Source of the DNA: Kiritimatiellia bacterium
GTDB lineage: Bacteria > Verrucomicrobiota > Kiritimatiellia > RFP12 > UBA1067
Direction: 5' to 3'
Assembly: GCA_033812795.1 (NCBI GenBank)
Contig: JAPXSY010000006.1
Location: 16,755-80,754 of the forward strand
DNA: 64,000 bases
The position numbers were made by a program, and so were the translations under genes. Shown here piece after piece: positions 31,889-35,678 of the stretch. The notes beneath the pieces were generated by a model, which was given only the letters and a program-made list of their open reading frames with translations, searched no databases and was not told where the DNA came from. Numbering within the stretch: the first letter of the stretch is position 1; the number at the start of each line of letters is the position of its first letter.

Positions 31889-34030
31889 TCAACTCGCCCC
31901 CAGCCCTCTGCTCATCACCACGCGCGCCAGCGCCTCGATCGCCCCTTCCGCGGTCGCCTCCGCCGCGACCGCATCCGGTTGACGGCCGAATCCGGCCAGC
32001 GCCTCCGAAGTCGGCCTGCCGATCGTCACCACGATCTGACCGGCCAGCGCCTCCACGCCCGCCTGCCCCATAAACGCCTCAACCGCTGATGCGCTCGCAA
32101 AGAAAACCGCATCGGACGCGGGCAACCGGGGATAGTGAACCGGTTCGTTGACGTACAACAGAACGTCCTCTACCGCCGCGCCCTCTTCGCGCAGAACATC
32201 GGCCAACAGCGGTCCGGCCTTTTCCGAACGCAACCGCAACACGTTGCATCCCGCTATTTCCAACGTCCGCATTTCCGCCGCCAATCCCGCCGCACTGTAT
32301 TCCATCGGCGGCGTCAGATCCGGATGGATACCATGGTGCCGAAACGCCGCGGCACTCCCCGGCCCGCAGGCCATCACCCGCGGCAGACGCCGCAGGTCGA
32401 CCCCCGCCTGCCGGATCATGCCCATGAACAGATGAACCGCCGAGGGTGAAGTCAACACCACCCAGTCAAACGACGCGATCCGCGTCAACGCCCGCTCCGC
32501 TTCAACACACGGCGTCAGCCGGATCAGTGGCCGGAGCAACGGCACTCCCCCGAAATCGACCACCCGCAACGCGGTCTTGTCCAGCAACGCCTCACTGCAC
32601 GTCAACAACACGCGGCAACCACGCAACGCGCCGGTGTCCCGCCGATACGCGCCCGCCGCCGCTTCACCGATTACCAGGAGTCCCGGCGCCTTCGTCTCCA
32701 CCGGCGCGGCCGCACCCTCGCGCAACCCGGCCAGCGTGGTGCGGAAAATCAGTTCGTCCTCCGCCCCCGCGTCAAAAACCAGTCCGACCGGGGTTTTCCC
32801 ATCCCAGCCCTCCGCAAGCAACTGGCCGGCCATCTCCGTCGCCACACGCACGGACATGAACAGCACCAACGGCAGACGCCGACGCGCTTCGAGCGACACG
32901 CTGGCTACGGCGCCGCCCTCGACCCGCGGCGTGAATGCCGTGAACCCGCGGGACACGCCGCGTTTGGTGAGCAGCATTCCTGTGCCGGTGGTGGCCACGG
33001 TCAGCGCACTCACCCCCGCCCGCACGCGGTAAGGCAGTTCCAACCGTTCCAACTCGTCAGTCTCTTCCGCCAGCCGCCCGAACAATCCGGGGTCACCCCC
33101 CTTCAGCCGCACGACCCGTCTGCCCTGACGGGCATACTTCGCGATGAGGTCAGTAATATCGGGCTGCCGCACCGCATGTTCGCCGCACCGTTTACCCACG
33201 AAGACGCGCTCGGCCGAGGGCGGCAGAAACTCCAGCAACCGGTCATCCATCAGCACGTCGTAGAGGCATACCTCCGCCTGCCGCAAATCCCGGACGCCGC
33301 CCCAAGTGCAGGACTCGGCCACGCCCACCCCCGCGCCCACAAAGCGCACCGCTTTGACAAAATATCCGCGCACCCTCGTCCAGACCGGATCGCCCAGTCG
33401 GAAGGTCACCGCCAACCGTCCCTGACCGGCGGGCACCGGCAGTTCTGAAAGCGGTATCCACTCGCTCACGCGCTCTTCCAGACCGAGCCGGTTCAGAGCC
33501 GCGCCAGCCATCAGCAGAGCGTCATACCGGCCAGCATCGAGTTGCTCCAGGCGCGACGGGATCGCGCCGCGGATCGGCTTCAGCACGGCGTGCGGGAATC
33601 GCGCCCGCGCAAAGGCTCCGCGCCGCTCGCTACTGACCCCCACCACCGGCTTCTCCGGCAGGTCAGCCCACGTTTTACCTTGCGGCAGAACCCATGCGTC
33701 GCGCGGATCTTCCCCCCAAGGCAGCCAGAACCAGTCCAAATCCGGCGGTACGGGATCAGGCAGGTCTTTGGCGCTGTGTACGGCCAAATCGATGCATCCC
33801 TTGCGCAAGGCGTCATCCAAATCGCGCGTGAAAAAATCCGCCGGACTGACGCGCAGGTCGGTGGCCAGATCCCGGTCACCCGGCGTTTCCAGCGTCACGG
33901 GATCGAATTCGAGAAACGGAAACAGCGCGGCAATCCGGTTGAGCGCGTCACGCGTCTGAGCCAGCGCCAGCCGACTGCCCCGCGTCCCGACTTTCGCGCG
34001 TACCGTTTGCATGGTTAACCTTTCCTTCAC
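31889..34030 (-). CDS. Tri-domain tetrapyrrole enzyme: HemC-like (porphobilinogen deaminase domains 1-2 only), uroporphyrinogen-III C-methyltransferase (CobA/SUMT), and uroporphyrinogen-III synthase (HemD)
   Basis: HemC-type signatures: GTRGSRLALAQT, HSAKDLP, PAGQGRLAV. The SUMT domain follows directly: VRFVGAGVGV...VCLYDVLMDD...VVRLKGGDPGLFGRLAEE. A HemD-like C-terminus follows (VVLTSPSAVHLF). Confidence 0.7.
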   Translation of the reverse strand: MKERLTMQTVRAKVGTRGSRLALAQTRDALNRIAALFPFLEFDPVTLETPGDRDLATDLRVSPADFFTRDLDDALRKGCIDLAVHSAKDLPDPVPPDLDWFWLPWGEDPRDAWVLPQGKTWADLPEKPVVGVSSERRGAFARARFPHAVLKPIRGAIPSRLEQLDAGRYDALLMAGAALNRLGLEERVSEWIPLSELPVPAGQGRLAVTFRLGDPVWTRVRGYFVKAVRFVGAGVGVAESCTWGGVRDLRQAEVCLYDVLMDDRLLEFLPPSAERVFVGKRCGEHAVRQPDITDLIAKYARQGRRVVRLKGGDPGLFGRLAEETDELERLELPYRVRAGVSALTVATTGTGMLLTKRGVSRGFTAFTPRVEGGAVASVSLEARRRLPLVLFMSVRVATEMAGQLLAEGWDGKTPVGLVFDAGAEDELIFRTTLAGLREGAAAPVETKAPGLLVIGEAAAGAYRRDTGALRGCRVLLTCSEALLDKTALRVVDFGGVPLLRPLIRLTPCVEAERALTRIASFDWVVLTSPSAVHLFMGMIRQAGVDLRRLPRVMACGPGSAAAFRHHGIHPDLTPPMEYSAAGLAAEMRTLEIAGCNVLRLRSEKAGPLLADVLREEGAAVEDVLLYVNEPVHYPRLPASDAVFFASASAVEAFMGQAGVEALAGQIVVTIGRPTSEALAGFGRQPDAVAAEATAEGAIEALARVVMSRGLGAS

Positions 34031-34151
34031 TTCCGAACGAGCCGTACCGCAACATGCCCATGAGTAAACTTCATGCTCTTCGTATCCTTGTGGTGTAACA
34101 ACATGTTATTGCGTTTGTTGATCCGTAAGGCACTGCCGAAAACTTCGACGT

Positions 34152-35678
34152 TCAGCGTTCGACGTTCAGCGTTCGACGTTCTTCCCCGGTCTCATGTTCC
34201 CCCTGGACGCTGCGCCGCATGCGCTCATAGAGGCTGCGGTGCTCGCGCAGGATCGCGTCACATGCTTTCAGCACTTTGTCCAATGTGCCGTTGGCGGACC
34301 GGTACCACCGTTTGATCTCATCCAGATCCGCCACGCGTACCCCGTTGCCGAACGTGTCCAGCGCCGGATCGATATTCCGGGGCATGCCGAGGTCGATCAG
34401 CGTCACACCGCGCGGATTCAACCGGGCACCATGCTCCAACCGGTTCAGCACCGGCTCGGATGCATTGACCGCACTCACCACAGCGTCAATCGTGGGCAGC
34501 ACACGCGCCAGGTCTTTCAGCTGGATCACTTCGATCCGGTGCGCGTCTTGGGCGCTCGACGCGGGCGCGTTGCGATGATAGGCCCACACGCAATGGCAGC
34601 CGCGGCGCAGCAGATCCTCCATCAGCCCCTGCCCGACCACCCCCGTGCCGATCACCAGCACACGGCTGTCCGGCAGCGCCGGCAGCTGTTCCGCCAAGTA
34701 CCGCAACGCCAAATCCTCGATCTCCGCGACGTCCAGCAGCGGCTCCACCTCATGACGGATATCCTTGGAAATGTGCAGCGCCGCATCGCACAACTCCCGG
34801 ATGACCGATCCCGCCCAACCGAACGTGACGGCCTCATCCACCGCCTCCTTCACCTGAGAGACCACATGGAACTCGCCCGGCGTCTGCGAATCCATGCCAG
34901 CCGCGACCAGGCACAGGTGCGCGAACGCGTCAAACCCGCGCTTCATGTAAAACCGGTCCGGCGGCAATTGGTCGAACCGCAGCAACCTCCGCAAAATCCC
35001 GCTGGTTCCCGCCTCGCGCGAAATCGCGGCCACCACTTCAATACGGTTGCAGGTGTTGAGAATGAAAAACTCATGCACACCCCAGATCTGCCGGATCATC
35101 CCGCCAATCGCCTCGCGTTCCCGCAACAGCAAATGGAATGGCGCACGTTCCTCAGCCGAAAGGTACTCATGACTGGTACCCAGCACCAGCAGATCCGAAT
35201 TTTCGATCGAATCCAGATGTTTCCGAAGATTTTCTTTCACCAGCCGCGATTGCCGACAGGATTTGCCGCTGGTGGAGACGGCGACCAGCACATCCCCGGT
35301 GCGGATAATAGCGGGCGTCACAAAATCCCCGTCCGGCCAATTCCCGTCCGCGCAGCAGCACAGAATCCGATTGGCTTGTGCGCTTTCGAGAACGGTTCGG
35401 TTGACGCGCTTGTCATCCGTGCAGGCGAAGACCATCGCCGCGCCCTCCACATCGGCCGGCTCAAACCGGCGAGCCGTATGGTGGATCGCCCCGGTTTCGG
35501 CCAGGGTTTGCAATTCCGCCACACAGTCCGGACACACGAGCCGAACCTCGGCGCCCGAATCCAACAAAAGCTCGACTTTGCGCTGCCCGACGCGTCCGCC
35601 CCCCACAACCAACACGCGGCGACGCTCAATCATCGCGTTGATCGGAAATGTCTTTCGAACCGGTCTTGTGTCTCGCAT
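34152..35678 (-). CDS. hemA: Fusion of siroheme-synthase-type precorrin-2 dehydrogenase/sirohydrochlorin ferrochelatase N-domain with glutamyl-tRNA reductase (HemA)
   Basis: N-terminal Rossmann fold: RRVLVVGGGRVGQRKVELLLDSGAEVRLV. HemA catalytic region with the TCNR(I/T)E motif: FILNTCNRIEVV. An NADPH-binding domain follows. Confidence 0.75.
   Translation of the reverse strand: MRDTRPVRKTFPINAMIERRRVLVVGGGRVGQRKVELLLDSGAEVRLVCPDCVAELQTLAETGAIHHTARRFEPADVEGAAMVFACTDDKRVNRTVLESAQANRILCCCADGNWPDGDFVTPAIIRTGDVLVAVSTSGKSCRQSRLVKENLRKHLDSIENSDLLVLGTSHEYLSAEERAPFHLLLREREAIGGMIRQIWGVHEFFILNTCNRIEVVAAISREAGTSGILRRLLRFDQLPPDRFYMKRGFDAFAHLCLVAAGMDSQTPGEFHVVSQVKEAVDEAVTFGWAGSVIRELCDAALHISKDIRHEVEPLLDVAEIEDLALRYLAEQLPALPDSRVLVIGTGVVGQGLMEDLLRRGCHCVWAYHRNAPASSAQDAHRIEVIQLKDLARVLPTIDAVVSAVNASEPVLNRLEHGARLNPRGVTLIDLGMPRNIDPALDTFGNGVRVADLDEIKRWYRSANGTLDKVLKACDAILREHRSLYERMRRSVQGEHETGEERRTLNVER

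Follow-up and report, generated by a model that had tools for sequence, protein, structure and literature searches.

Can a hydroxymethylbilane synthase (HMBS; also called porphobilinogen deaminase, PBGD, or HemC) work when the domain that anchors its cofactor is gone? HMBS is a textbook enzyme, and its cysteine-linked, self-assembled dipyrromethane primer is presented as universal; the cofactor, linked to Cys242, is described as occurring in no other enzyme (reviews PMC7242693, PMC13564367). All solved HMBS structures contain three domains (PMC7959689). The question was raised by a 64,000-nucleotide stretch of a Kiritimatiellia genome (GCA_033812795.1, contig JAPXSY010000006.1, positions 16,755 to 80,754; hereafter the window), in which PBGD domains 1 and 2 are fused in frame to a uroporphyrinogen-III C-methyltransferase (SUMT, CobA-type) and to HemD, next to a second fused gene that joins a SirC-like module to glutamyl-tRNA reductase (GluTR, HemA). 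The window is part of contig 6 of a 3.54-Mb assembly in 166 contigs, estimated to be 90.8% complete. We consider it reasonably probable that the two fused proteins supply five activities of tetrapyrrole synthesis and that the PBGD module is the working HMBS of a two-domain clade, with its primer held without a thioether. Residues of the first fusion are numbered in its 713-residue frame unless numbering from M7 is stated (Cys241 of the frame is Cys235 in M7 numbering).

PBGD domains 1 and 2 lead directly into a methylase

The hemC'-cobA-hemD gene (31889..34030, minus strand) was delimited from its open reading frame (ORF) together with Pfam and NCBIfam parses. The ORF encodes 713 amino acids (aa) from a GTG codon; relatives begin at M7 (34012), which is probably the true start. 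Pfam placed PF01379 at residues 13-214, PF00590 at 230-435 and PF02602 at 489-698, and the module limits are 13-225 for PBGD domains 1-2, 227-465 for SUMT and 471-710 for HemD. The motifs GTRGSRLALAQT, HSAKDLP and PAGQGRLAV were all found in this product, and Pfam detected no PF03900, the PBGD C-terminal domain (domain 3). For each fused protein the best 120 homologues were collected; those of the HemC'-SUMT-HemD fusion are 55-100% identical and, where named, come from Kiritimatiellia metagenome-assembled genomes (MAGs). All 120 carry the same three Pfam domains and none carries PF03900, and a home-built domain-3 hidden Markov model (HMM) also found no domain 3 in them. The AlphaFold2 (AF2) model of the fusion is confident, with a pLDDT of 84.7 and a pTM of 0.85. 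On a 99-kb contig, the gene of one close relative, P0122 (206 aa, 75% identity), stops abruptly within GQGRLA (…GQGRLAAGTTC), which probably reflects a frameshift or breakage of the fused gene.

The PBGD module itself (33356..34012, minus strand; residues 7-225) was recognized by PF01379 (E 2.2e-50), by TIGR00212 and by structure matches. TIGR00212, the hemC model, scored 173.6 bits against a cut-off of 164, but only over model positions 2-204 of 293. Searches with phmmer against solved PBGD chains gave E values of 1e-30 to 1e-35 for domains 1-2, and the alignments to the 17 distinct solved PBGD sequences matched all stop at query residue ~215. In addition, the fusion model matched the PBGD chains 1PDA, 4HTG and 7CCY with VIA Z scores of 16-18 and a root-mean-square deviation (rmsd) of 2-3 Å. 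Human HMBS consists of domain 1 (residues 1-116 and 216-239), domain 2 (117-215) and domain 3 (240-361), which carries Cys261 (PMC7959689). The PBGD part of the fusion ends (~residue 225) at the position matching the end of human domain 1, and strand β1 of the methylase begins at ~228. This junction (33350..33358, minus strand), located from the AF2 secondary structure and the human domain limits (PMC7959689), lies at the expected start of domain 3 and connects the last helix of domain 1 (209-218) to methylase strand β1 (222-226; both in M7 numbering). Since the PBGD part ends where domain 1 ends and the methylase strand follows three residues on, domain 3 is neither displaced nor concealed: it has been cleanly removed and something else put in its place.

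Both ORFs lie on the minus strand at the coordinates of the initial annotation, which had described HemC domains 1-2 running straight into CobA/SUMT and then HemD, seemingly without domain 3 or the cofactor cysteine, and had read the neighbouring gene as a SirC-type NAD-binding domain fused to HemA. These descriptions hold for the first gene, whose whole product lacks PF03900, and for the second, in which TIGR01470, GlutR_N, the NADPH domain, the TCNRIE motif and structure matches all agree. The annotation had also allowed that domain 3 or its cysteine might be present in a shifted position; alignment found neither. The cofactor cysteine (E. coli C242, human C261) and its GG(G/S)C loop do not occur in the PBGD module here, and the domain-3 arginines as well as the cysteine-bearing cofactor-binding loop are missing from short PBGD.

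The substrate site is kept and the active-site lid is remodelled

The catalytic residue Asp89 (human Asp99, in the HSAKDLP motif; 33764..33766, minus strand) was assigned by alignment with human HMBS and is invariant in the family. The human substrate- and cofactor-site residues R26, S28, Q34, S96, K98, D99, R149, R150, R167, R173, R195 and Q217/G218 (PMC7959689) are all kept here and clade-wide, down to 55% identity, the conserved equivalents in the ORF being R17, S19, Q25, S86, K88, D89, R136, R137, R154, R160, Q203 and G204. N169 alone was not kept among the human site residues compared (list in PMC7959689). As read from the alignments, this conservation of catalytic and substrate-site residues is the mark of purifying selection on short PBGD; because the human site residues are all conserved, the cleft should still be able to bind pyrroles with its catalytic aspartate intact.

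Column statistics also revealed features that set the short modules apart. D65-F66-F67 (33830..33838, minus strand) is a clade signature in the active-site lid, where canonical enzymes have G-(L/V)-F: D65 occurs in 96% of short modules, whereas 88% of canonical ones have Gly, and F66 occurs in 99% of short modules. Further signatures are the replacement of Glu by D72 and of Lys by Q163, the loss of canonical Thr159 and a GDRD sequence that opens the lid. Compared with canonical HemC/HmbS (E. coli 1PDA/1AH5, human 7CCX/5M6R), the fold of domains 1-2, the catalytic Asp, the Arg/Ser-rich pyrrole cleft and the position in the pathway are alike. However, domain 3 and the cofactor loop with its Cys (E. 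coli Cys242, human Cys261) are gone, the chain continues in frame into SUMT and HemD, the lid reads GDRD and D-F-F, and the Thr and Lys of RGNVxTRLxKL are lost.

The short module is the only PBGD detected in a probable siroheme-dependent haem pathway

PF03900 was not found in the whole genome at E <= 1, and neither HMM searches nor tblastn detected a second PBGD; the only further PF01379 match scored 15 bits, which is chance level. The separate full-length hemC for which the initial annotation had suggested a search is thus not found in this genome, and domain 3 acting in trans, or a second hemC, was rejected as an explanation. In the same genome tblastn found no paralogue of any of the five modules. 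The canonical hemE-hemH set that would have spoken for the classical route was likewise sought and not found: the genome searches detected no HemE, HemH/ferrochelatase, CbiX, CbiK or siroheme-type sulfite/nitrite reductase (NIR_SIR).

HemL (544.9 bits, cut-off 527.3) and HemB are present. AhbA and AhbB are encoded by one 344-aa ORF (G000:C30, locus L091:8326-9360, plus strand) that passes both curated cut-offs (AhbB 216.4 bits against 125, AhbA 153.2 against 140), and two adjoining radical SAM genes have AhbC and AhbD as their best matches, at 615 and 349 bits, which lie below the respective cut-offs of 650 and 500. The gene next to the AhbA-AhbB fusion encodes a PdxB-like dehydrogenase. Directly downstream of ahbC-ahbD lies a 373-aa ORF (G000:C20, locus L090:5296-6417, minus strand) whose N-terminus looks by eye like a phage-type integrase, which raises the question of whether ahbCD stands at the edge of a mobile island. 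Haem consumers are represented by a cytochrome-c-peroxidase-like protein and a pair of secreted proteins, each of which contains seven CxxCH motifs. The latter (G000:C4 ~73211 and G000:C17 ~6687, both plus strand, frames of 918 and 283 aa) are probable multihaem cytochromes; cytochrome bd, considered as a haem consumer, was rejected because it was not found in the genome, where multihaem c-type cytochromes were found instead.

Each step from glutamyl-tRNA to haem b via the siroheme-dependent route has one candidate gene, as expected from the initial annotation, which had pointed to siroheme or the siroheme-dependent haem route and not to HemE/N/G/H. Since no other PBGD or free domain 3 was found and candidates exist for the rest of the pathway, this route would depend on the short HemC. 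Furthermore, no separate chelatase was detected, which leaves the SirC-like module as sole candidate for the dehydrogenase step as well as for iron insertion; by analogy with CysG and Met8p we infer that it is bifunctional.

Short and canonical HemC rarely occur together

We scanned 151 Kiritimatiellia genomes for PBGD domains 1-2, domain 3 and Ahb genes, and examined a phylum sample of 201 genomes, each at least 90% complete. PBGD domains 1-2 were found in 98 of the 151 class genomes, and domain 3 scored above cut-off in six, each time in a canonical frame of 305-375 aa; the short form thus accounts for about 92 of the 98, in open frames of about 660-770 aa. AhbB was detected in 35 class genomes, 32 of them with PBGD, and 31 of these 32 have the short form, which in Ahb-positive genomes often lies on the same contig within 2 kb of ahbAB. 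Across the phylum sample, ~70 genomes encode a HemC of canonical length, nearly all outside the class, and ~50 encode a long fused frame that lacks domain 3; the two forms occur together in G278 alone. This near mutual exclusion of the short and canonical forms is the pattern expected of isofunctional proteins. In G278 a canonical 306-aa HemC accompanies the fused short form in a 721-aa frame (G278:C69:599-1222 and G278:C74:3901-4512), representing either a transitional state or contamination (the genome is 91% complete, with 1% contamination).

These distributions bear on two other explanations. One is that a canonical hemC or a separate domain 3 lies in the unassembled part of the source genome and that the short module is redundant, as the incompleteness and fragmentation of the assembly and the coexistence of both genes in G278 would allow. 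This appears very improbable: besides the negative PF03900 and PBGD searches, the PBGD module without domain 3 is also the state of every further genome sampled from its own family (eight) and from the neighbouring family f3 (12), some of them 94-98% complete, and the closed or near-closed class genomes G100, G137 and G015 have the long-frame form with no domain 3 above cut-off. The other is that the module no longer makes hydroxymethylbilane and serves as a scaffold or regulator that binds porphobilinogen or bilane, the hydroxymethylbilane coming from an unrecognized enzyme or from tetrapyrrole uptake. The cofactor domain and cysteine that define HMBS are indeed gone, and the searchable literature yielded no biochemical data on the short clade. 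However, the catalytic Asp and the full set of substrate-site residues are invariant, the module stands in pathway order between GluTR and HemD, about 92 sampled class genomes (31 of them with Ahb genes) have no PBGD homologue other than the short form, this form occurs apart from canonical HemC in every sampled phylum genome but one, and the upstream HemA, HemL and HemB would be purposeless without a PBGD step. We therefore regard a loss of the deaminase function as improbable.

The class members with canonical HemC suggest how the fusion arose. In G026, G039 and G028 a separate SUMT-HemD gene lies directly downstream of hemC, and the HemC of these three genomes carries the GG(G/S)C cofactor loop; in G020 a separate 514-aa SUMT-HemD gene lies on a contig other than that of its hemC. 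The methylase loop is the standard GAGPGDP in the three full-length SUMT-HemD genes (G020, G026 and G039). Given this conserved hemC-cobA/hemD arrangement, the fusion looks like an in-frame loss of domain 3 together with the gene boundary. The bifunctional CobA/HemD (SUMT-UroS) proteins of G020, G026 and G039 (514 aa) have the same SUMT-HemD order as the window's fusion, and in G026 and G039 their genes follow hemC directly, as fused here; in contrast, neither a hemC stop nor an intergenic gap nor domain 3 remains here, so that three enzymes share one chain, the SUMT loop has changed from GAGPGDP to GAGVGVAESCT, and identity is only 31-35%. Bifunctional CobA/HemD proteins have also been described in Desulfovibrio, Clostridium josui and Lactobacillus reuteri.

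A 1,193-aa frame in G262 was considered as a five-module fusion and rejected, being an ordinary three-module fusion with an in-frame upstream extension. This fusion, in another lineage of the phylum, stands between CbiD, of the cobalamin pathway, and HemB (L098, G262:C8:45500-54500); there, the short HemC feeds B12 synthesis instead of, or besides, Ahb haem synthesis.

Short PBGD modules form one clade with several architectures

The PBGD half was used as query in an exhaustive search which, combined with Pfam parses, recovered the short module in several layouts. SirC-GluTR'-PBGD' triple fusions of 640-735 aa (P0311, P0319, P0346 and others), from MAGs labelled Phycisphaerae and Armatimonadota, carry the short PBGD at the C-terminus, and SirC-PBGD' proteins also occur. 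Other proteins join a PBGD' without domain 3 to HemD with no methylase in between (P0312, P0256, P0271, P0273 and P0332; P0312 comes from a Planctomycetota MAG). Stand-alone short PBGD proteins measure 206-253 aa; the chlamydial P0181 and P0206 pass the NCBIfam model NF002202, and the 80 named genome loci of this form belong almost all to Chlamydiae (Parachlamydiales, Simkania, Waddliaceae, Rhabdochlamydiaceae and Chlamydia). The relatives are annotated inconsistently as HMBS, SUMT, 'NAD(P)-dependent oxidoreductase' or 'hypothetical protein'.

A maximum-likelihood tree was built from 145 domain 1-2 modules; it is unrooted, its canonical sequences are those nearest the query, and its N-fused group comes from the query's own family. 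One branch (SH-aLRT 97) separates 84 of the 86 domain-3-less modules from all 58 domain-3-bearing ones, and a tree forced to hold all 86 short modules together was not rejected (p-AU 0.81). The two short modules that fall off the clade are probably truncated or mislabelled sequences. Taken together, these results suggest that domain 3 and the anchoring cysteine were lost once, in a distinct two-domain clade that includes the fusions of Kiritimatiellia and Planctomycetota and the stand-alone proteins of Chlamydiae.

The stand-alone chlamydial HemC (NF002202/PRK01066, 241 positions), annotated as hydroxymethylbilane synthase, shares the clade, the GDRD and DFFTR signatures and the lack of PF03900 with the window's module. 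The two differ in that the chlamydial proteins stand alone (about 215-240 aa) whereas the window's module is fused and scores 149.9 bits against the NF002202 cut-off of 251, and in that their invariant Cys before the RG motif is not present in the window's module. The chlamydial short HemC feeds the classical HemE-HemH route. The SirC-GluTR'-PBGD' triple fusions (P0311, P0319 and P0346) have the same modules in the same order as the gene pair of the window, and their PBGD belongs to this short clade and their GluTR is truncated alike; however, their polypeptide ends after PBGD', which leaves a free C-terminus, while here the break comes before PBGD'.

No conserved cysteine replaces the anchor across the clade

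The SUMT module (32636..33352, minus strand; residues 227-465) was identified by PF00590 (3.6e-31) and scores just under the cut-offs of TIGR01469 (175.1 bits against 185) and NF004790 (179.7 against 198). It matches CysG, SUMT and NirE with a VIA Z of ~20 and is the sole TP_methylase of its type found in the genome. Its YD, GKR and GGDP motifs are present, and its first, N-terminal loop has diverged to GAGVGVAESCT. A separate segment (32897-33010, minus strand; residues 335-372 in M7 numbering) reads RAGVSAL...TPR where canonical SUMT has the substrate/SAM motifs (I/V)PG(I/V)(T/S) and TGH, and is modelled with a pLDDT below 50 despite good conservation in the family. The HemD (uroporphyrinogen-III synthase) module (31901..32620, minus strand; residues 471-710) was identified by PF02602 (8.5e-38) over model positions 6-230 of 231, a full-length HEM4 domain, and matches the HemD structures of T. 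thermophilus and P. aeruginosa (1WD7 and 4ES6) with a VIA Z of ~16.

The diverged methylase loop contains Cys241 (33308..33310, minus strand), which its conservation made a candidate substitute anchor: the cofactor could still be covalent on a lineage-specific residue, here Cys241 near the cleft and other residues in other lineages. Several findings fit this explanation. The residue is 98% conserved in the 120 nearest relatives, it is missing from the GAGPGDP loop of the separate SUMT-HemD of class members with three-domain HemC, the N-terminal half of the methylase lies at about the domain 3 position in the fusion model, and four aligned chlamydial short forms have a common Cys four residues before the RG motif. 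Nevertheless, more distant fusions of the same architecture have the loop Cys only in some cases and often show A, L, F, S or the canonical GPGD..L(L/A)T, the SirC-GluTR-PBGD fusions end at the short module with nothing after it, and no Cys column is common to the three architectural groups of the clade. Cys241 was accordingly rejected as a general substitute anchor, as the loop varies within one architecture and the short module also occurs at a free C-terminus or alone. A conserved Cys within domains 1-2 was rejected as well, none being conserved and seven modules containing no Cys at all, one of which, P0215, is a complete stand-alone module. A covalent cofactor on lineage-specific residues thus seems improbable.

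How the two fusions might work

Returning to the reading we favour, a primer held without a thioether, we propose the following scheme. The two polypeptides would combine five activities (GluTR, porphobilinogen deaminase, uroporphyrinogen-III synthase, SUMT and precorrin-2 dehydrogenase/ferrochelatase) and, with HemL, HemB, AhbAB, AhbC and AhbD, would lead to haem b via the siroheme-dependent route, the PBGD module acting as the cell's working hydroxymethylbilane synthase. The arginine-rich cleft separating domains 1 and 2 would hold the primer, either dipyrromethane or the first substrate pyrrole. Since the pyrrole-binding and catalytic residues are kept and no Cys is conserved in the clade, this primer is most probably non-covalent, and its retention is probably aided by the acidic lid in its remodelled form (GDRD, D-F-F). 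The N-terminal methylase half is predicted to pack at the usual place of domain 3 and to cap the cleft: PBGD chains align to the fusion model over 222-237 residues within the model range 3 to ~300 (4HTG: Z 18.1, rmsd 3.1 Å, 231 aligned), and since this exceeds the ~205 residues of domains 1-2, the model suggests that the methylase half lies at about the domain 3 position, over the cleft. HemD of the same chain would then receive the unstable bilane and the neighbouring SUMT would methylate uroporphyrinogen III, while the SirC module, dimeric in its known relatives, would probably substitute for the GluTR dimerisation domain.

The function of the module as the HMBS of the cell is well supported by the pathway context, and we infer that its primer is non-covalent and that the lid and the methylase cap act as proposed. 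Several points weigh against this scheme. The activity is read from genomic context, the AhbC and AhbD scores lie below their curated cut-offs, and a canonical hemC could sit in the part missing from an assembly of 166 contigs that is 90.8% complete. All studied HMBS require the covalent cofactor (PMC7242693, PMC7959689), and we found no assay of any clade enzyme described in the searchable literature. The methylase placement is drawn from alignment ranges, and a cap would not be essential to the chemistry of the clade, because the stand-alone chlamydial forms have none. A wider proposal, which we hold tentatively and with slightly less than even confidence, is that the whole clade makes the tetrapyrrole chain without covalent dipyrromethane, with either a non-covalent primer or a cofactor-free mechanism, and that D65 helps to hold the first pyrrole. 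If the mechanism were cofactor-free, the fused HemD might receive an aminomethyl-bilane in place of the hydroxymethyl form.

The neighbouring gene fuses SirC to a GluTR without its dimerisation domain

The second fused gene (34152..35678, minus strand; Pfam and NCBIfam parse) joins a CysG-N/Met8p-like sirC' to a hemA' that lacks the GluTR dimerisation domain, and is separated from the first by a 121-bp spacer (34031..34151, from the ORF coordinates). The gene pair lies on the same strand, in a module order matching the SirC-GluTR-PBGD fusions of other lineages. The ORF encodes 508 aa; relatives begin at M16 (35633), the probable start. Pfam and NCBIfam placed PF13241/TIGR01470 at residues 11-156, followed by GlutR_N (166-310) and the NADPH domain (330-457). 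The SirC-like precorrin-2 dehydrogenase module, also a probable ferrochelatase (residues 16-159; 35202..35633, minus strand), was defined by TIGR01470, which scored 112.1 bits against a cut-off of 62.3 over model positions 1-145 of 205; the CysG chain matches it over residues 12-146 only, and the C-terminal helical part is missing.

The GluTR catalytic and NADPH domains (residues 161-508; 34155..35198, minus strand) were defined by TIGR01035 and 1GPJ. PF05201 (4e-24) and PF01488 (1.8e-20) both match; TIGR01035 reached 126.8 bits against a cut-off of 209.55 over positions 2-337 of 416, and 1GPJ was matched at residues 3-318 of 404 only. The active-site cysteine in TCNRIE is Cys210 of the ORF (35049..35051, minus strand, from the sequence), and T194, C195, N196 and R197 of this motif are invariant in the alignment of relatives. 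The dimerisation domain PF00745 was found neither in the 508-aa protein nor in any of its 120 best homologues, all of which carry PF13241, PF05201 and PF01488; NCBI names these relatives only 'NAD(P)-dependent oxidoreductase' or 'hypothetical protein'. In the AF2 model (pLDDT 87.2, pTM 0.71) the SirC Rossmann module leads directly into the first GluTR catalytic strand. The fusion thus has in common with CysG/Met8p/SirC (1PJQ, 3DFZ; TIGR01470) the NAD-binding Rossmann module and central domain (CysG 12-146), and with GluTR (1GPJ, 4N7R; TIGR01035) the NADPH domain and a catalytic domain bearing the TCNRIE cysteine, but the SirC C-terminal helical part and PF00745 (1GPJ 319-404) are missing and the modules are joined head to tail. 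SirC, CysG-N and Met8p are dimers, and by analogy a dimeric SirC module may replace the lost GluTR dimerisation domain.

In SirC-GluTR an invariant Cys-Cys-Cys was also observed at 35352-35360 (minus strand; residues 107-109 of the ORF), leading into a D-G-N-W..G-D-F loop that is invariant too. This stretch stands in for the NVV-DD segment of CysG, beside the Asp104 equivalent, and the SirC loop (alignment residues 95-106) is the only part of the SirC-GluTR model with a pLDDT below 50. The Cys-Cys-Cys loop might bind metal in the chelatase reaction.

Discussion

Searches of the full-text literature, which leave most subscription papers uncovered, turned up neither a two-domain HemC nor the SirC-GluTR fusion. 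The two-domain HemC clade is apparently uncharacterised, its stand-alone form being already modelled by NF002202. The inconsistent names given to its relatives make the clade a matter for annotation as well.

The siroheme-dependent haem route is usually linked with archaea and sulfate reducers, and the genes described here, judged by their sequences, place it in a lineage of the Planctomycetes-Verrucomicrobia-Chlamydiae (PVC) group. The loss of the GluTR dimerisation domain, paired with a fused SirC module, would be another, lesser case in this operon of one domain standing in for another. In most of the sampled Kiritimatiellia the only HemC belongs to a clade that lacks the anchoring domain and its cysteine, and the same clade occurs in Chlamydiae and some Planctomycetota. 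Should these short enzymes be active, HMBS can do without the covalent anchor, and priming, counting to four and release would all be testable with one recombinant protein.

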